From assembly GCA_034520665.1 (NCBI GenBank), contig JAXHNJ010000002.1:480660-544659 (forward strand): a stretch of DNA of 64,000 nt. Direction: 5' to 3'. Positions within the stretch are counted from its first letter, which is position 1. Each line of letters begins with the position of its first letter. The translations under genes were made by a program, and so were the position numbers. Source of the DNA: Patescibacteria group bacterium. GTDB taxonomy: Bacteria; Patescibacteriota; Patescibacteriia; JAXHNJ01. The notes under the pieces are model-generated. The model saw only the letters and a program-made list of their open reading frames with translations. It had not been told where the DNA came from and ran no database searches. Below, in pieces: positions 523 through 63,797 of the stretch.

Positions 523-598
523 GGTGGACCCAACAGGAGTCGAACCTGCGACCTCCGCAGTGCAAATGCGGCGCTCTAGCCAACTGAGCTATGGGCCC
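523..598 (-). tRNA. tRNA-Ala (anticodon TGC)
   Basis: Cloverleaf GGGCCCA/TGGGTCC acceptor stem with the G3:U70 Ala identity pair. Anticodon loop TTTGCAC. T-loop TTCGACT. Discriminator A then CC (terminal A not encoded). Confidence 0.9.
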
Positions 599-631
599 AC
601 CTGATTTTATCGCGGATCCACGATGCGCAAT

Positions 632-898
632 TTATTTTTTAATTAATTTTTCAATAGCTTTTCGCTTTTTCCAAGATTTTATTTGTTTTTCTCGTTTTCT
701 TGCCTTTGATAAATATTTAAATGTTTCAGTATAAACTATTTTCCATGGAATATATCTTTTTGTAGATTTTACCTTACCTTTGTTATGCTGGTTTAATCTT
801 TTTGTTAAGTCTTCACAACTGCCAATATAATAAGAATTATTAATAGTTGATTTTAATATATATAAATAATACATTACATAATATTTATTTGTGCGCAT
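632..898 (-). CDS. GIY-YIG nuclease family protein (88 aa)
   Basis: N-terminal motif YVMYYLYILKS...YYIGSCEDL...R..QHN matches the GIY-YIG core. Start codon lies 5 nt after a duplicated tRNA-Ala 5-prime half. Stop lies 12 nt before the leader of the intact tRNA-Ala. Confidence 0.8.
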   Translation of the reverse strand: MRTNKYYVMYYLYILKSTINNSYYIGSCEDLTKRLNQHNKGKVKSTKRYIPWKIVYTETFKYLSKARKREKQIKSWKKRKAIEKLIKK

Positions 899-903
899 CG
901 GGA

Positions 904-959
904 CAAATGCGGCGCTCTAGCCAACTGAGCTATGGGCCCACCTGATTTTATCGCGGATC
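904..959 (-). repeat. direct repeat: 21-bp tRNA-Ala leader plus tRNA-Ala positions 1-35 (copy of 563-620)
   Basis: 56/56 identity to 563-618. The copy ends inside the anticodon loop (..GCATTTG then diverges). It forms the 5-prime UTR of the GIY-YIG ORF. Confidence 0.9.
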
Positions 960-985
960 TTTTAAATTATTGGATTATTGAAGAA

Positions 986-1076
986 CAAATGCGGTGCTTT
1001 ACCAAAATGAGTCCCGACCTTTTAGGTCGTGGATCCTCGACTCGCGCCTAAGGCGGAGTCGGGACTAAGGAGCCCA
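986..1076 (-). repeat. degenerate tRNA-Ala 5-prime copy interrupted by a 53-nt IR-bounded mini-element (1012-1064)
   Basis: Minus-strand reading GGGCTCCTTAG-[TCCCG...GGATCCTCGAC...CGGGA]-CTCATTTTGGTAAAGCACCGCATTTG resembles tRNA-Ala 1-35 with an insertion between positions 10 and 11. Element has terminal inverted repeats TCCCGAC/GTCGGGA. Confidence 0.7.
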
Positions 1077-1083
1077 TATTATT

Positions 1084-1326
1084 TTATCCTAAGGCACTAA
1101 TATTGAATATTTTTCCTAAAAGTCCTTGTAAAATACCAGTTAGAATTAAGAAAGTTCCAATAATAACAATTAAACCAAGTATTTTAATTAACATTCTAGT
1201 ACCACCTTCAGCTGATAAATGCTCTTCAGCCCAGGGAATACGACCGGTCCAGTTGAGAAACCACTCGGTTTTAATTAACATAAGAGAGCCGATGATTAAG
1301 GCAATAATGCCGACAAAATATTTCAT
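1084..1326 (-). CDS. small hypothetical membrane protein (80 aa)
   Basis: ORF track. Two predicted hydrophobic helices. No recognisable family. Confidence 0.5.
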   Translation of the reverse strand: MKYFVGIIALIIGSLMLIKTEWFLNWTGRIPWAEEHLSAEGGTRMLIKILGLIVIIGTFLILTGILQGLLGKIFNISALG

Positions 1327-1390
1327 ATTTTAAAGTTAATTTATTAGTCGTTATTTACCAAAGTTAAGAATGATACTCTGGCGGATGAAA

Positions 1391-1467
1391 TGGTGGGCGA
1401 CTGAGGACTCGAACCTCAGACCTTCTCGGTGTAAACGAGACGCTCTAGCCAACTGAGCTAGTCGCCC
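1391..1467 (-). tRNA. tRNA-Val (anticodon TAC)
   Basis: GGGCGAC acceptor stem, anticodon loop TTTACAC, T-loop TTCGAGT, CCA encoded. Confidence 0.9.
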
Positions 1468-1471
1468 TTTA

Positions 1472-1555
1472 TGCGGACGGTGGGACTTGAACCCACACGG
1501 CCCAAAGGACCCTAGGCCCTCAACCTAGTGCGTATACCAATTCCGCCACGTCCGC
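1472..1555 (-). tRNA. tRNA-Leu (anticodon GAG), long variable arm
   Basis: GCGGACG acceptor stem, anticodon loop TTGAGGG, 14-nt variable arm, T-loop TTCAAGT, discriminator A, no CCA. Confidence 0.85.
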
Positions 1556-1825
1556 TCAATTAAAAGTATTTTTAAGCATAGCCCTTAAGGAAGATTTGCC
1601 TTTACTAGTTTTAAAATATCTTTCTCTTTTTTTAGCGTCTATTTTATTATTAAAAACTTCGTAAAAAATAAGTTTTAGGGGTAAATAACTTTTTGTAAAT
1701 GGGCTTTTTCCTTGTTTATGCTCTTTAATCCTTCTACTAATATTAGTTGTAAAGCCGGTGTATAATTTCTTATTTGAGAGTAATAGGATATAAACATAAT
1801 ACATAAATTGTTCGTTATATACCAT
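1556..1825 (-). CDS. GIY-YIG nuclease family protein (89 aa)
   Basis: Motif MYYVYILLLSNKKLYTGFTTNISRRIKEH. The stop codon abuts nucleotide +1 of tRNA-Leu with 0 bp gap. Confidence 0.8.
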   Translation of the reverse strand: MVYNEQFMYYVYILLLSNKKLYTGFTTNISRRIKEHKQGKSPFTKSYLPLKLIFYEVFNNKIDAKKRERYFKTSKGKSSLRAMLKNTFN

Positions 1826-1896
1826 TCTGTACCACTAAAGGGTACAGGATTAGCCGCGAACCCTTTAGTGGTTCACGGCAGTTCCACCACGTTTGC
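1826..1896 (-). repeat. leader of GIY-YIG ORF: degenerate tRNA-Leu 5-prime fragment plus 11-bp-stem hairpin
   Basis: Minus strand GCAAACGTGGTGGAACTG resembles tRNA-Leu GCGGACGTGGCGGAATTG. It is followed by inverted repeat CCACTAAAGGG...CCCTTTAGTGG enclosing a T-loop-like GGTTCGCGGCTAATCC. Confidence 0.6.
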
Positions 1897-1917
1897 TTAT
1901 TTTAAAATGATATATTA

Positions 1918-5775: not shown

Positions 5776-5902
5776 CGTTCACACGCCCCCCGCCTTCTTC
5801 TTCAATGTAACTCAATAATTAAGAGGGTAAACTTCGCCCCTACCTCCTAATAGCTTATCTGCCGTAGTCCACTAGGATGCAGGCAGGAAGGCGTAGTGCG
5901 CC
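5776..5902. ncRNA. GC-rich candidate structured RNA (unassigned)
   Basis: About 55% GC island in roughly 30% GC surroundings. No ORF. Contains CAGGCAGGAAGGCG and GGCG-TTCACA-CGCC hairpins. Could not be matched to SRP, tmRNA or RNase P RNA by eye. Confidence 0.25.
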
Positions 5903-6072
5903 CGACCCCTCCACATTTTATCTCTCCGCTAAACTAAGCGTTTAGTTATTATTTTTAAATGATTGTTTTTCAATGCGCCTGGTCTCCCTGCGGGAGACGA
6001 CCCCCATTTTACCGGTCCGCTAAACTAAAGGTTTAGTCATTATTTTTAAGTGATTGTTTTTCAATGCGCCTG
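5903..6072 (-). repeat. two tandem 85-90 bp units, each a degenerate 3-prime fragment of tRNA-Ile(UAU) plus about 50 bp trailer
   Basis: Unit 1 (5903-5982) lacks the T-arm. Unit 2 (5983-6072) has the T-arm replaced by GTCTCCC-TGC-GGGAGAC. Both end in GCGCCTGG (the tRNA acceptor 3-prime strand) with conserved trailer CCGCTAAACTAA.GGTTTAGT.ATTATTTTTAA.TGATTGTTTTTCAATGCGCC. Confidence 0.8.
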
Positions 6073-6137
6073 GATGGACTTGAACCATCGACCCCCACTT
6101 TATAAGAGTGGTGCTCTAACCACTGAGCTACAGGCGC
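6065..6137 (-). tRNA. tRNA-Ile (anticodon TAT)
   Basis: GCGCCTG acceptor stem, anticodon stem CCACT/AGTGG, loop CTTATAA, T-loop TTCAAGT, discriminator A, no CCA. Confidence 0.8.
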
Positions 6138-6295
6138 GAGATATTATTTACTTATTAATTTATTAATATAATTTCTCTTCTTTCTTGATTTGAAGTATTT
6201 TTCTCTTTTTATGGATTTTATAAAAAATATAAACAAAAAAACTAAACCAAGTCAAAAATTAGTTTAGCAGAGATTTTTCCTAAAATCAAATTAGT

Positions 6296-27500: not shown

Positions 27501-27882
27501 ATATACACTAGTTTAAATAGGTCGAAATTAGACTAAAATTAAATAAAAAGGAACAAAAAATTCATCAAATTTAACCAAGTACATTTAAACAAATAGGAGA
27601 AAAAACAGTGATCTCTAAGTTGTATTTGGAGCTCTCTGTTTTTTCTTCAAATTTTAAAAGGAAAAAAAGAACTTTGACAACTAAAATGTGACAGAAAAAT
27701 GGGTTTTTTGAAATTCCTTTTTAGGAAAAGTAAGTGGTGGAAATTAAGAGGATAAGATTAGGATCAAATATAATCTTAAATATAGATTTTTTTTGATGCA
27801 TCTTGTTTTAGCCTTTCAATTTCCACCACTTGCCAACAAAAAAATATTTTTTTCGAGGATTTATTTTAAAATCCTCAATCCA

Positions 27883-29459
<1,577 letters not shown>

Positions 29460-29679: not shown

Positions 29680-29881
29680 TTTTAAAAGTAAATAATAATA
29701 TAATAAAATTTTGGGCGGCTAGTCCCGTTCCGTCGCTTGGCGACAGAACGCGGATCCTCGACCCATAGGGTCGGGACTCAGCTCTTGTAAAACCAAATAT
29801 CTTTTTAAAAGTAAATAATAATATAATAAAATTTTGGGCGGCTAGCTAAGCTGGTTAGAGCGTCTCACTGACCCGCCTGCC
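29680..29881 (+). repeat. two direct units: 43-bp tRNA-Ile leader plus tRNA-Ile 5-prime fragment
   Basis: TTTAAAAGTAAATAATAATATAATAAAATTTTGGGCGGCTAG at 29680-29722 and 29803-29845. Unit 1 carries a 54-nt insertion after position 10. Unit 2 carries tRNA positions 1-36 and then CCCGCCTGCC. Confidence 0.85.
29723..29776 (+). mobile_element. 54-nt mini-element with terminal inverted repeats TCCCG/CGGGA and core GGATCCTCGAC, inserted at position 10/11 of a tRNA-Ile pseudo-copy
   Basis: Second copy at 1012-1064 in opposite orientation relative to its host tRNA-Ala pseudo-copy. Same insertion point TAG^CTCAG. Confidence 0.55.
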
Positions 29882-29950
29882 AAAGTACGAAACCTTATAA
29901 ATTCTTGTTCTTATTTATATAATTACATAGCATTATTTTCCTTTGATGGT

Positions 29951-30027
29951 GGGCGGCTAGCTCAGCTGGTTAGAGCGTCTCACTGATAATGAGGAGGTCG
30001 AAGGTTCGAGTCCTTCGCCGCCCACCA
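29951..30027 (+). tRNA. tRNA-Ile (anticodon GAT)
   Basis: GGGCGGC acceptor stem, anticodon loop CTGATAA, T-loop TTCGAGT, CCA encoded. Confidence 0.92.
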
Positions 30028-30065
30028 TCAGTTGATAATTAAAAAATACTTAGTACGGCGGGTAG

Positions 30066-30107
30066 ATAATGAGGAGGTCGTCTCCAGAAGGGAGACCGTG
30101 CCACCAA
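30066..30107 (+). repeat. tRNA-Ile(GAU) 3-prime fragment copy with T-arm replaced by GTCTCC-AGAA-GGGAGAC hairpin
   Basis: GATAATGAGGAGGTCG-hairpin-CCGTGCCACCA. Confidence 0.75.
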
Positions 30108-30306
30108 GTCGTTTCCGAGTAACCTGGCTCACCAATATTTTAAAAATATCGCAAAGGACATTACATATTTATTTTCCCAGTTGCCGAGACCTAAAAAAGC
30201 CGAGATAGCTCCCCGTCATTCCACGGGGTAAGCAGTGGTAGACCTGCCCGCAATGCCGAGCAAATATAAAGTATATTAAAATATAAAGATAGAGTCTGTC
30301 TCTGGG

Positions 30307-30381
30307 GCCTGGGTAGCTCAGTGGTAGAGCGAAGGACTGAAAATCCTTGCGTCACCAGTTCGATTCTGGTCCCAGGCACCA
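30307..30381 (+). tRNA. tRNA-Phe (anticodon GAA)
   Basis: GCCTGGG acceptor stem, anticodon loop CTGAAAA, T-loop TTCGATT, CCA encoded. Leader TCTGTCTCTGG pairs with trailer CCAGAGGCAGA. Confidence 0.92.
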
Positions 30382-30413
30382 GAGGCAGATTATATTGTTA
30401 ATTGTTTAAGCGT

Positions 30414-30510
30414 TGCTTGGCGGGTGGAGCGAAGGACTGAAAATTTTACCCCGCCCTTGAGTGAAAACGAATAGTGCGAGGCCTTGCGTCACCAGTTCTG
30501 CGACTTTGGC
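30414..30510 (+). pseudogene. degenerate tRNA-Phe copy with 37-nt insertion in the anticodon loop and truncated D-arm
   Basis: GGAGCGAAGGACTGAAAAT + [TTTACCCCGCCCTTGAGTGAAAACGAATAGTGCGAGG] + CCTTGCGTCACCAGTTC, then diverges. Confidence 0.7.
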
Positions 30511-30525: not shown

Positions 30526-30573
30526 CCCGGATGTAGCTCAGTCGGCTAGAGCGCTTGCTTTGGCCCGCCTGCC
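30526..30573 (+). repeat. orphan tRNA 5-prime half (ends in anticodon loop TTTGG) joined to CCCGCCTGCC
   Basis: CCCGGATGTAGCTCAGTCGGCTAGAGCGCTTGCTTTGG then CCCGCCTGCC. The same 10-mer follows the tRNA-Ile 5-prime half at 29872-29881. Confidence 0.7.
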
Positions 30574-30581
30574 TTGACTGA

Positions 30582-30655
30582 CGGGGTATAGCGAAGTTGG
30601 CTATCGCGCCTGCTTTGGGAGCAGGAGATCGTCGGTTCAAGTCCGACTACCCCGA
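30582..30655 (+). tRNA. tRNA-Pro (anticodon TGG)
   Basis: C1:G72 acceptor stem CGGGGTA/TACCCCG, anticodon loop TTTGGGA, T-loop TTCAAGT, discriminator A, no CCA. Confidence 0.85.
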
Positions 30656-30666
30656 TAGCTAAGGCA

Positions 30667-30760
30667 GTCGGGCGGGGAGCAGGAAATCGCGAGTTTGAGT
30701 CTCACATTCCCGACTTAGAGAGAAAAGGTTGTCTCCCAAAGGGAGACGGCCACGACCAAG
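30667..30760 (+). repeat. D-armless tRNA-Pro-like 3-prime fragment followed by GTCTCCC-AAA-GGGAGAC hairpin
   Basis: GTCGGGCGGGGAGCAGGAAATCGCGAGTTTGAGTCTCACATTCCCGAC, then AGGTTGTCTCCCAAAGGGAGAC at 30727-30747. Confidence 0.6.
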
Positions 30761-30951: not shown

Positions 30952-30982
30952 GTCTCTGACGGAGACTCCGGTCGCCCGCTCC
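30952..30982 (+). repeat. GTCTC-TGAC-GGAGAC hairpin fused to copy of tRNA-Gly 3-prime end (TCCGGTCGCCCGCT)
   Basis: Same architecture as the Ile-UAU and Ile-GAU fragment copies. Confidence 0.7.
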
Positions 30983-38634: not shown

Positions 38635-38657
38635 AGAACCGGCGAATAGAGGTTTTG
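38635..38657 (-). repeat. partial duplicate of tRNA-Cys 3-prime half (GAACCGGCGAATAGAGGTTTTG)
   Basis: 22/22 identity to 38711-38732. Copy begins immediately 3-prime of the anticodon. Confidence 0.8.
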
Positions 38658-38687
38658 TCCCGATTTCTCCAAAATTTTGAAGTTAAG

Positions 38688-38762
<75 letters not shown>

Positions 38763-39066
38763 ATGGCTTCAAAATTTTGTTGAGAAATCGAGGATCCTCG
38801 CAAAAGTACTAGTATATAAAATATTTATTTCATCATTGCGGGACAGACCCCCGCCTAGACTTTACTCCGTCAAATGACGGAGATTTGCTTGCCCCACGAA
38901 GCTTAAAAGCGAAGTGGGGGCTTATGTGGCCGTGAAAATTATAACTGGCGGAGCCGACTCTGTTGCCTAACGGAATGGCCGCGAAAAAATTGGTGGAGAC
39001 TATTTTATATAGAAGACATAAATAACTTTTTAAATATTAACAAATTTTGATTATTTTTTCAAGAGT

Positions 39067-63595: not shown

Positions 63596-63797
63596 AGCCT
63601 ATTCTAGCCTCAGCCAAAGGCTCATCCGTTCTTTAGTGGAGATCCGCCTCGGGCGGAAACTGAGCTATTGACTCAAAGATAGAAACGGGCCGTCTAGCTC
63701 TCGTTTTGCCAAGAAAGAAACGGATTCTCAAAGTTTAAGTTGAACTTTATTTCGCCCCTCCTCTGAGAGGCGTAACAGAACTATTATTTATGGGCCC
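63596..63797 (-). repeat. GC-rich structured segment upstream of tRNA-Ala(GGC) containing dispersed tRNA-Ala 5-prime fragments
   Basis: Minus strand: GGGCCCATA (RC of 63789-63797), then about 120 nt, ATAGCTCAGTT, then about 85 nt, then the intact tRNA. Hairpins GTGAGCCT...AGGCTCAT and GGAGATCCGCCTCGGGCGGA. Confidence 0.5.

Follow-up and report, generated by a model that had tools for sequence, protein, structure and literature searches.

Small GIY-YIG nuclease genes nested with intact tRNAs inside split tRNA genes: an apparently widespread, hairpin-framed cassette in Patescibacteria and other bacteria

Why should the gene of a minimal GIY-YIG nuclease lie between a partial and a complete copy of the same transfer RNA (tRNA) gene, and does this arrangement mark an element that preys on tRNA genes? 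The question is raised by a 64,000-nt stretch of DNA, referred to as the window, from the metagenome-assembled genome of a Patescibacteria group bacterium (contig JAXHNJ010000002.1), in which two small open reading frames (ORFs), ORF1 and ORF2, stand beside the genes for tRNA-Ala(tgc) and tRNA-Leu(gag). An initial annotation had read both as small selfish nuclease cassettes that insert at tRNA genes and regenerate their target. We located the tRNA genes of the window with ARAGORN and an additional Rfam search, compared the two loci with related loci from other bacteria, and found that ORF1 is inserted together with an intact tRNA into an older, split tRNA gene. Because this hairpin-framed arrangement recurs in dozens of unrelated bacteria, it looks like a widespread selfish element. 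All features described at the two loci lie on the minus strand.

ARAGORN confirmed both tRNA genes. The intact tRNA-Ala(tgc) gene occupies positions 523-598 (Rfam 69.5 bits), and a segment composed of a 20-nt leader and tRNA positions 1-35 (563-618) recurs upstream at 904-959 with 56 of 56 nucleotides identical, the leader consisting of GATCCGCGAT and one arm of a stem that we call stem B. This 56-bp direct repeat is as perfect as the initial annotation had stated, and it does end in the anticodon loop, with its boundary between anticodon bases G35 and C36. On the other side of the intact gene, a remnant of an outer tRNA-Ala 3' part lies at 489-508, in which positions 36-49 are matched exactly at 508-495 (14/14 by blastn-short) and TCTCCC (494-489) occupies the place of the T arm. 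The breakpoint of this remnant (495-508) is complementary to that of the 5' copy and, since positions 36-49 adjoin the intact tRNA and its trailer, ORF1 and the intact tRNA-Ala lie nested in an older tRNA-Ala gene that is split at 35/36.

The insert in this split gene is framed by a palindromic double hairpin, TCCCGAT-[ORF]-ATCGNGGATCCNCGAT-[tRNA]-ATCGGGA. Its left end, TCCCGAT (903-897), and the 5' arm of stem A together cover 893-903; stem A has 9 bp and closes ORF1 by pairing CGATGCGCA (901-893) with 629-621. The 3' arm of stem A leads into the frame centre ATCGTGGATCCGCGAT (624-609; both together 609-629), which is kept in related loci, and ATCGGGA at 509-515 forms the right end. Stem B, formed by leader 599-608 and trailer 516-522, lengthens the acceptor stem of the inner tRNA-Ala into a stalk, so that the predicted fold of 505-632 is a cloverleaf on a continuous helix (-63.4 kcal/mol, z = -6.0). 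Still further upstream, the direct-repeat family and a motif pattern search revealed the oldest, degenerate tRNA-Ala 5' copy (986-1075), which is itself split at 10/11 (positions 1-10 at 1065-1075, 11-35 at 986-1011) by a cargo-less 53-nt double hairpin at 1012-1064 (-32.3 kcal/mol, z = -5.1). A near-identical mini element (29723-29776, z = -4.7) sits at 10/11 of an old tRNA-Ile fragment elsewhere in the window.

ORF1 is predicted to encode an 80-aa GIY-YIG nuclease (632-874; longest ORF to 898). The longest ORF begins 5 nt after the partial tRNA, as noted initially, but the probable start codon is ATG 874, 29 nt after it, because the 80-aa NCBI annotation and all homologues begin with MFY.YIL there. 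The 341 bp between the 56-bp repeats code solely for this ORF, and the proposal that recombination between the repeats could excise the cassette cleanly is geometrically correct. A promoter within the duplicated leader, from which the ORF had been thought to profit, was considered and rejected: the supposed leader is one hairpin arm, and a promoter scan performed no better than on shuffled sequence (9 sites vs 7.4 +/- 2.7); no terminators were found in a scan of the region. We also observed a weak sigma-70-like match at 906-878 (TTGTCC, 17 nt, TATTAT; 9/12), which is created at the junction of tRNA fragment and insert and ends 4 nt ahead of ATG 874. A near-leaderless ORF1 transcript could start from this junction match, in a region whose site count is not above that of shuffled sequence.

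At the second locus, ORF2 (1556-1804; longest ORF to 1825) is predicted to encode an 82-aa GIY-YIG nuclease and probably starts at 1804. The intact tRNA-Leu(gag) gene (1472-1555; ARAGORN and Rfam) follows directly, the stop codon of ORF2 (1556-1558) abutting tRNA nucleotide +1 (1555) exactly as first described. Sequence reading upstream of ORF2 identified a degenerate tRNA-Leu 5' fragment (positions 1-18, 14/18 identical; 1879-1896), followed by a predicted hairpin module, CCGTGAACC...GGTTCGCGG and CCACTAAAGGG...CCCTTTAGTGG (1828-1878), with a fold of -28.5 kcal/mol (z = -3.4). Both the fragment and the strong hairpin had already been pointed out, and both are repeated in an independent metagenome contig (L150): there the ORF, 69.5% identical to ORF2, has the same position between L19 and tRNA-Leu, and tRNA-Leu positions 1-11 lie ahead of it together with the same CGTGAACCACTAAAGGGTTC hairpin, the module sequence being kept.

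The two ORFs were matched to the GIY-YIG profile PF01541 above its curated cut-off of 22.6 bits (ORF1 62.7 bits, E 4e-17; ORF2 59.5 bits, E 4e-16), which bears out their assignment, and they share 34% identity with each other. ORF1 is identical to an 80-aa NCBI "GIY-YIG nuclease family protein" whose cluster comprises one member from one contig. The catalytic residues Y5, Y16, G18, R26, H30 and E62 are invariant among 30 aligned sequences, and the AlphaFold model of ORF1 (pLDDT, the predicted local distance difference test score, of 96) displays the beta-beta-alpha-beta-alpha-alpha order expected of the GIY-YIG fold (E2-9, E15-20, H23-31, E44-52, H55-66, H71-79). Foldseek ranked UPF0213 BH0048 (1zg2) and Slx1 best, followed by I-TevI, and phmmer against the PDB listed 1zg2 (4e-5) and 1ywl (1e-3), both ahead of I-TevI. 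As these E-values are modest, we place the proteins, at lineage level only, in the stand-alone Slx1-like lineage (UPF0213 / COG2827). They consist of the catalytic domain and one basic C-terminal helix without a linked DNA-binding domain. Their Pfam matches are limited to GIY-YIG and the related T5orf172, with no HUH (Y1) transposase among them; PHROGs gave weak N-terminal homing-endonuclease matches and PADLOC weak, partial matches to homing-endonuclease-like models. Behind them stands a very large family, with at least 9,077 clusters at 50% identity (E <= 1e-10), mostly of 80-130 aa. The bacterial stand-alone Slx1-like GIY-YIG proteins include YhbQ of E. coli. This lineage, a minimal domain without the C-terminal Asn, has been read as a vertically inherited repair/recombination nuclease, and one relative is fused to the tRNA methyltransferase TrmH (PMC1564403).

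How general the arrangement is was assessed with 80 related loci, the top matches to one peptide pattern, RExQIK[STG][WY]K[KS], in contigs representing one genome per species. A tRNA on the same strand lay <=200 nt from the ORF in 67 of the 80 loci and on the opposite strand in none; the background of 0.097 tRNA per kb in the locus flanks leads us to expect about 2 linked loci by chance. In 55 loci, mostly from Patescibacteria, the tRNA is 3' of the ORF (Ala 23, Glu 19, Ser 5, Tyr 4, few others), whereas in 12, mostly from Bacteroidota, Ignavibacteria, Acidobacteriota and Chloroflexota and several of them on megabase contigs, it is 5'. The search for the same ORF beside other tRNAs, which the initial annotation had suggested, was thus positive. 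Flanking tRNA fragments accompany the ORF in most of the 80 loci, and many loci have the tRNA 5' part ahead of the ORF and the 3' part behind the intact tRNA. In L023, both outer halves are 97-100% identical to the inner tRNA, and L002, L012, L037 and L065 share this layout.

In the tRNA-Ala loci, the parts follow one another as they do in the window, from the outer 5' half and TCCCGAT through stem, ORF, stem, ATCGNGGATCCNCGAT, stem, intact tRNA and a further stem to ATCGGGA and the outer 3' half. All three frame motifs, the right end ATCGGGA among them, were found in 17 of 24 such loci; the left flank always ends in ..TT[T/C]G (position 35), the right flank begins with C36-A37, and in 20 of the 24 the left end TCCCGAT directly follows anticodon-loop position 35. 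Stem A in these loci is described from the displayed sequences, not from a statistic. The sequence of stem B differs in every tRNA-Ala locus yet remains complementary, with 13-17 continuous pairs into the acceptor stem, so that the structure of the stalk is conserved rather than its sequence. Identity between outer and inner tRNA ranges from 85 to 100%, which points to events of different ages. These loci modify the initial annotation in part. Its reading as a selfish tRNA-gene cassette gains from the 67/80 linkage, the split copies and the empty sites described below, whereas regeneration of the tRNA by a simple duplication of its 5' half does not hold, as the ORF and a complete tRNA are commonly inserted together at 35/36 and both outer halves are kept.

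Other tRNA types carry variants of the frame. A mini element is present at 11/12 in tRNA-Glu loci, and L034 has its ORF and tRNA in a single common loop. The Tyr and Ser loci have a different double hairpin, CCACCGCC..GGCGGGGT and TCCGCC..GGCGGA, within the anticodon (34/35 in L065, 35/36 in L049). In the type found outside Patescibacteria, the intact tRNA comes first, the ORF second and a pseudo-tRNA third, in which a single TCCCGR-N4-7-YCGGGA hairpin stands in for the anticodon arm (27-43); direct repeats of the pseudo-tRNA 3' part enclose the ORF in L066 and L077. The density of TCCCGR/YCGGGA is 3.3 per kb adjoining the ORFs, as opposed to 0.9 per kb elsewhere in the loci. Hairpin and protein go together: of the 14 loci in protein clusters 1 and 2, 10 have type II hairpins (9 of them type II alone), and of the 66 loci in the other clusters, 51 have the type I hairpin alone. 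Protein clades also track the tRNA type. A few mini elements stand apart from tRNAs. One double hairpin (L027 1133-1174) has no recognisable tRNA context and lies between 11-bp direct repeats (ATAGAATTTAG), which could be a target duplication or chance, and the immediate flanks of L001 1158-1202, L027 3656-3742 and one mini element in L068 contain no recognisable tRNA sequence.

Sites without the cassette, which the initial annotation had also proposed to look for, were found as well. The arrangement L19, tRNA-Leu(gag), tRNA-Val(tac) is conserved, and in about 60 metagenome loci tRNA-Leu follows L19 without any GIY-YIG ORF between them; among these L19 / tRNA-Leu metagenome loci, the ORF is present in L150 only. 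A plain, frame-less tRNA-Ala(tgc) occurs in 6 relatives. These comparisons involve distant relatives (L19 identity <=65%) and are made across lineages rather than strains, so the distribution is patchy across lineages and not a polymorphism within a species.

Similar remnants accompany at least 9 of the 13 tRNA genes of the window, in which 4 of the 6 GGATCC sites are centres of the hairpin frame. Just upstream of tRNA-Ile(tat) (6065-6137), at the expected position, a tblastn search with ORF1 residues 60-88 gave a weak match (6147-6233, minus strand; 55% identity, E 0.027) that we read as the decayed C-terminal remnant of a third GIY-YIG gene. The genes for tRNA-Phe, tRNA-Gly(tcc), tRNA-Ile(tat) and tRNA-Ala(ggc) have tRNA fragments alongside. 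In the outer 3' remnants of several tRNAs, the T arm/T loop is precisely exchanged for an unrelated small GC-rich hairpin, TCTCC..GGAGA in the window (494-489, 30081-30095, 5997-5983 and 30953-30965; also L002 3388-3407).

Several of these tRNA loci show layered insertions without an ORF. That of tRNA-Ile(gat) (29714-30106) has three levels: a fragment with positions 1-10 and the mini double hairpin 29723-29776, then a 5' half (29836-29871) with 35 of 36 nucleotides identical to the tRNA, and finally the intact tRNA (29951-30027), behind which a 3' fragment (30065-30080) has TCTCCAGAAGGGAGA (30081-30095) in place of its T arm. The intact tRNA-Pro(tgg) (30582-30655) lies inside the anticodon loop of an older tRNA-Pro-like gene (locus 30528-30714; 5' half 30528-30563, 3' half 30677-30714; stems cccgcctgcc / ggcagtcgggcggg), which is still cloverleaf-shaped, with mismatches in the acceptor stem and the T stem. 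Nesting at tRNA-Ile(gat) and tRNA-Pro involves a different GC-rich stem, cccgcc...ggcggg. Around tRNA-Phe (30233-30498), a D-arm fragment (30233-30242) lies upstream, and a pseudo-copy in two pieces lies downstream (positions 21-38 at 30427-30444, 39-55 at 30482-30498) with a 37-nt insert between them, which suggests several insertions at different positions. The tRNA-Cys gene is enclosed by a TCCCG...GGATCC...ATCGGGA frame (38658-38843) with tRNA-Cys fragments alongside (38844-38852 and 38636-38657); as its left arm TCCCGCAATGATGAAATAAATATT resembles the start of the ORF1 cassette, this insert is probably an ORF-deleted derivative. On the 3' side of tRNA-Ile(tat) (5900-6064), the tRNA 3' end and a trailer of ~58 nt form a tandem repeat, with the T arm exchanged for TCTCCCGCAGGGAGA (5997-5983). 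Upstream of tRNA-Ala(ggc) (63643-63796) lie fragments of tRNA-Ala, GGGCCCATAA at ~63796-63787 and one with positions 7-17 at 63668-63658, and after them comes a hairpin, TCCGCC-cga-GGCGGA, of the kind present at the Tyr and Ser loci. Behind the 16S ribosomal RNA (rRNA) gene (27882-29458) come tRNA-Ile, Phe, Pro, Gly and Leu (to 31132) instead of the usual Ile-Ala-23S order; no 23S rRNA was detected in the window.

We favour, with moderate confidence, the reading that these loci harbour a selfish, nuclease-driven cassette of the homing type, which invades tRNA genes while carrying a replacement tRNA and which, by repeated invasion, gives rise to nested copies. It is apparently both widespread and undescribed: in the full-text literature searched, with most subscription journals outside its coverage, neither GIY-YIG genes nested in split tRNA genes nor the hairpin frame was described. 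The reading builds on what is directly observed, namely the architecture, its recurrence, the linkage to tRNAs, the empty sites and the intact catalytic residues, and it is supported by a decay series made up of outer tRNAs with 85-100% identity to the inner ones, the mismatched outer tRNA-Pro and the GIY-YIG pseudogene by tRNA-Ile(tat). The cassette would comprise the gene of an ~80-aa Slx1/UPF0213-type nuclease, the hairpin frame and the target tRNA as a whole and functional copy. In the tRNA-Ala lineage, the two-fold symmetric frame reads TCCCGAT-[loop 1]-ATCGNGGA.TCCNCGAT-[loop 2]-ATCGGGA, with the ORF in loop 1 and the tRNA in loop 2, and the unit lies between positions 35 and 36 of the resident tRNA-Ala, which is split by it and would decay while the carried copy assumes its function.

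For DNA cleavage, the repair route, expression of the ORF and the role of the hairpins, we infer the following course. The nuclease would cut an intact tRNA gene at or by the anticodon loop, and homing-type repair would use as template an allele whose tRNA already holds the cassette. The carried tRNA would be a target as well, and the nested structures would arise when it is broken in turn and mended from the enclosing split copy. In the window, the strand ending at inner position 35 would have invaded the outer 5' half and re-annealed after copying the ORF hairpin and the GGATCC centre together with leader and tRNA; such copy-repair from a break at 35/36 would leave a perfect duplication of leader and positions 1-35, with two 5' copies and a single 3' remnant. 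The ORF, always co-oriented with the tRNA, would probably be expressed by read-through from the tRNA transcription unit, and hairpin derivatives lacking the ORF or any cargo would be what remains after gene loss.

A number of points weigh against this reading. The nuclease activity, mobility and expression of every member are predictions from sequence. An 80-aa catalytic domain without a DNA-binding domain, unlike I-TevI or SegB, makes sequence-specific homing not obviously possible, and a carried tRNA that is itself a target would render the element unstable unless cleavage is rare or regulated. The scan of L19 metagenome loci yielded only relatives of <=65% identity and no strain-level empty site, that is, no species with and without the ORF, and the proportions among the 80 loci may not extend to the whole family because the loci are the top matches of one pattern search. 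The exchange of T arms is too regular for random decay and is not predicted by a homing model, although by analogy with the SegB motif discussed below it may remove a T-loop motif recognised by the nuclease. Finally, the TCCCGA...TCGGGA ends occur at varied positions (10/11, 11/12, D loop, 35/36, 55/56) and occasionally outside tRNAs; plain homing has no need of conserved termini, which look more like transposition or structure recognition. Because plain homing leaves such termini at varied positions, the mini copies and the co-evolution of hairpin and protein unexplained, the protein may well recognise the hairpins, which could act as transposon-like ends, as an autoregulatory or processing site, or as an RNA substrate.

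Taken to its conclusion, hairpin recognition leads to an alternative that we regard as possible but doubtful, in which the palindromic double hairpin would be the mobile unit. An Slx1-like structure-specific nuclease, probably a dimer, would recognise the TCCCGA/TCGGGA stems and cut at stem bases and at hairpin loops extruded from tRNA genes, with insertion finished by host ligation and repair; the ORF and the tRNA would be loop cargo and the mini double hairpins non-autonomous copies, in a logic like that of REP/RAYT or IS200/IS605. The conserved termini at several positions, in different tRNA species and in some copies outside tRNAs, speak for it, as do the two-fold symmetric frame, the insertion points that are mostly tRNA loops and the correlation of protein clade with hairpin type. 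The nearest solved relatives, Slx1/UPF0213, reportedly include a structure-specific nuclease of branched and stem-loop DNA (PMC8287910). Covariation of the cargo-flanking stems implies, moreover, that hairpins form in single-stranded nucleic acid. We know of no GIY-YIG DNA transposase, however, and a nuclease alone cannot accomplish strand transfer. Neither a target-site duplication nor an invariant target base was observed, C, G and T all occurring behind the right end. REP and MITE (miniature inverted-repeat transposable element) families are dispersed, whereas there are few mini copies, almost all of them within tRNA remnants, and copy-repair under the favoured homing model explains the nested duplication of the window more simply.

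The same stem covariation is compatible with RNA structure, which brings an RNA-level system into consideration, although we judge it unlikely. The insert would then be a protein-dependent tRNA intron or processing cassette whose frame is cut as RNA by the GIY-YIG protein or by RNase III, releasing the inner tRNA and the mRNA and possibly rejoining the outer halves, comparable to archaeal bulge-helix-bulge introns and split or nested tRNA genes. Site 35/36 is indeed that of self-splicing group I introns within Patescibacteria tRNA-Asn as well as tRNA-Asp (PMC13011429), and a family relative is fused to TrmH (PMC1564403). Pairing of the frame ends would join positions 35 and 36, ORF and tRNA are strictly co-oriented, and some loci, such as L037, have several inserts yet retain outer segments with 100% identity to the inner tRNA. 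On the other hand, splicing is unnecessary because an intact tRNA lies inside the supposed intron, and the outer copies are usually defective, with the tRNA-Ala 3' part truncated at position 49, T arms replaced and the tRNA-Pro acceptor stem mismatched. To our knowledge, the GIY-YIG enzymes characterised so far cut DNA. We rejected functional intron-containing outer tRNAs, as in-silico excision of 31 mini elements restored 0 ARAGORN-detectable tRNAs and the best outer copy, tRNA-Pro, is mismatched in both acceptor and T stems; an archaeal-type protein-spliced intron also fails, since the frame has 7-bp stems with 1-nt bulges instead of 3-4-3 bulge-helix-bulge geometry and its excision restores no tRNA. 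A group I intron or other ribozyme was likewise discarded: apart from tRNAs, 16S rRNA and noise below threshold, nothing was returned by Rfam searches of the window and 13 related loci at gathering thresholds and of 400-2000 at E <= 1, and the outer halves are truncated or degenerate. The initial annotation was therefore right that no group I intron is present, but not in its argument that a 3' exon is missing, given positions 36-49 at 495-508. Quite improbable is a host-beneficial or domesticated role, in which the nuclease would promote duplication, conversion or turnover of tRNA genes, for example against tRNA-cleaving toxins, with the fragments as by-products. The very large family with its conserved, intact catalytic residues, the several copies in one small genome and the adaptive, SegB-driven amplification of a tRNA gene against Septu defence in phage T6 (PMC13096335) would fit such a role, which is opposed by the patchy presence at conserved loci, the decayed ORF remnants and ORF-less derivatives, and the weak and partial PADLOC matches; with one intact tRNA copy per locus, functional genes are not amplified. 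An assembly artefact, or a chance similarity of tRNA-like sequences, is highly improbable. The genome is metagenome-assembled and short repeats can be mis-assembled, yet dozens of assemblies obtained independently in different studies, isolate and megabase-scale contigs among them, repeat the multi-part architecture; in the window, the breakpoints are exact and complementary and the hairpins have z-scores of -3.4 to -6.0. As the same architecture appears in so many independent assemblies, an artefact, which had been named as what would undo the 56-bp duplication, is excluded in practice.

Among known systems, SegB of phages T4 and T6 is the closest analogue and a direct precedent for a homing-type cassette. 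SegB, a GIY-YIG enzyme, causes nuclease- and recombination-dependent duplication of a segment containing tRNAs and segB (PMC13096335), and it is reported to cleave in tRNA genes and to favour inheritance of its own gene and the neighbouring tRNA region (PMC2330249). Its cleavage motif RAWTSGAAC corresponds, in our reading, to the tRNA T-loop box in reverse complement. Like the free-standing seg/mob GIY-YIG endonuclease genes of T4-like phages, the cassette gene lies among tRNA genes and outside introns, and it is present or absent at an otherwise conserved locus (~60 empty sites vs L150 and the window, all distant relatives). Unlike SegB, which has ~220 aa, a DNA-binding region and an I-TevI/UvrC ancestry, the cassette proteins are bare ~80-aa domains of the Slx1/UPF0213 lineage; SegB belongs to phages, whereas the cassettes are chromosomal in Patescibacteria and other bacteria, lie inside the split target gene, bring a whole replacement tRNA and have a conserved hairpin frame. 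With regard to a phage origin, no relative was found in IMG/VR viral contigs searched with a single peptide pattern. The UPF0213 / COG2827 proteins BH0048 (1zg2) and EF2693 (1ywl) are the best sequence and fold matches and share the minimal domain; the cassette genes differ in being tied to tRNA remnants and hairpins and patchily distributed, a context absent from the literature searched.

Patescibacteria are also known for tRNA introns. A survey of these reported group I introns at 35/36, some with homing endonuclease genes, and no cassettes of the present kind (Nakagawa et al. 2026, PMC13011429). Phylum and unusual anticodon-loop site are the same, whereas the cassettes show no ribozyme match, contain an intact tRNA and are flanked by decaying pseudogene "exons". 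Integrase-type islands and prophages resemble the cassettes in targeting tRNAs, in supplying the displaced part from the element and in being bracketed by partial tRNA direct repeats, such as the tRNA 3'-part repeats that flank ORFs outside Patescibacteria. The cassette differs in lacking a recombinase, in its size of ~0.35-0.45 kb, in having a hairpin frame instead of an att core and, in Patescibacteria, in duplicating a 5' half or nesting a whole tRNA; an integrase island was accordingly rejected, with no recombinase gene and an element that is too small, as was a defence system, on account of the weak and partial PADLOC matches. In archaea, disrupted tRNA genes (multiple-intron, split and permuted) include cases of intron transposition in Thermoproteales, and their inserts are short, structured, located at many non-canonical positions and often related in sequence, with leader-trailer helices that extend the acceptor stem. 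The archaeal splits may themselves have originated through mobile elements. These inserts are removed by splicing at bulge-helix-bulge motifs, in genes that are functional, whereas the copies interrupted by cassettes appear dead and an intact copy is supplied. In the REP/RAYT "REPtrons" and IS200/IS605, finally, a small nuclease gene encoding an HUH/Y1 enzyme is flanked by conserved hairpins, short hairpin-only derivatives lie nearby, as for the cassette, and the hairpins are dispersed genome-wide. Hairpins are presumably recognised in single-stranded DNA in both cases; the cassette is set apart by its GIY-YIG enzyme, the cargo inside the hairpin loops and its tRNA gene targets.

In conclusion, the cassette belongs with known kinds of elements, namely homing endonuclease genes of the free-standing type and elements that target tRNAs and restore them, and there is a real chance that its mechanism of mobility is new. 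We put forward, tentatively, that the double hairpin and the 80-aa Slx1-like nuclease may constitute an unrecognised class of mobile element, whose movement would depend on structure-specific cutting of its own DNA hairpins and of hairpins that tRNA genes extrude, and which would routinely replace host tRNA genes with imported copies. In a more radical variant, the protein may excise the frame from RNA, and bacteria would then have their first case of tRNA splicing that depends on a protein. If a new hairpin-cleaving class is correct, the UPF0213/Slx1-like "repair" family would largely consist of tRNA-gene parasites, and a living bacterial model for the splitting of tRNAs at the anticodon loop would be at hand. 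The loci provide a context for a huge family that carries no annotation beyond "GIY-YIG nuclease family protein" or UPF0213 and for which a role in DNA repair has been assumed. They suggest that these reduced genomes have their tRNA genes overwritten time and again, possibly with copies acquired by horizontal import, which matters for tRNA annotation, for the phylogenetic use of tRNA loci and for our view of tRNA gene turnover. An 80-aa nuclease that apparently co-evolves with a 6-7-bp hairpin stem could also serve as a compact structure- or sequence-specific tool. The system bears, moreover, on the origin of tRNA genes that are interrupted or split in the anticodon loop, which has been debated mainly from archaeal genomes, and here the inserting element, its nuclease and the full decay series are all visible and experimentally accessible.

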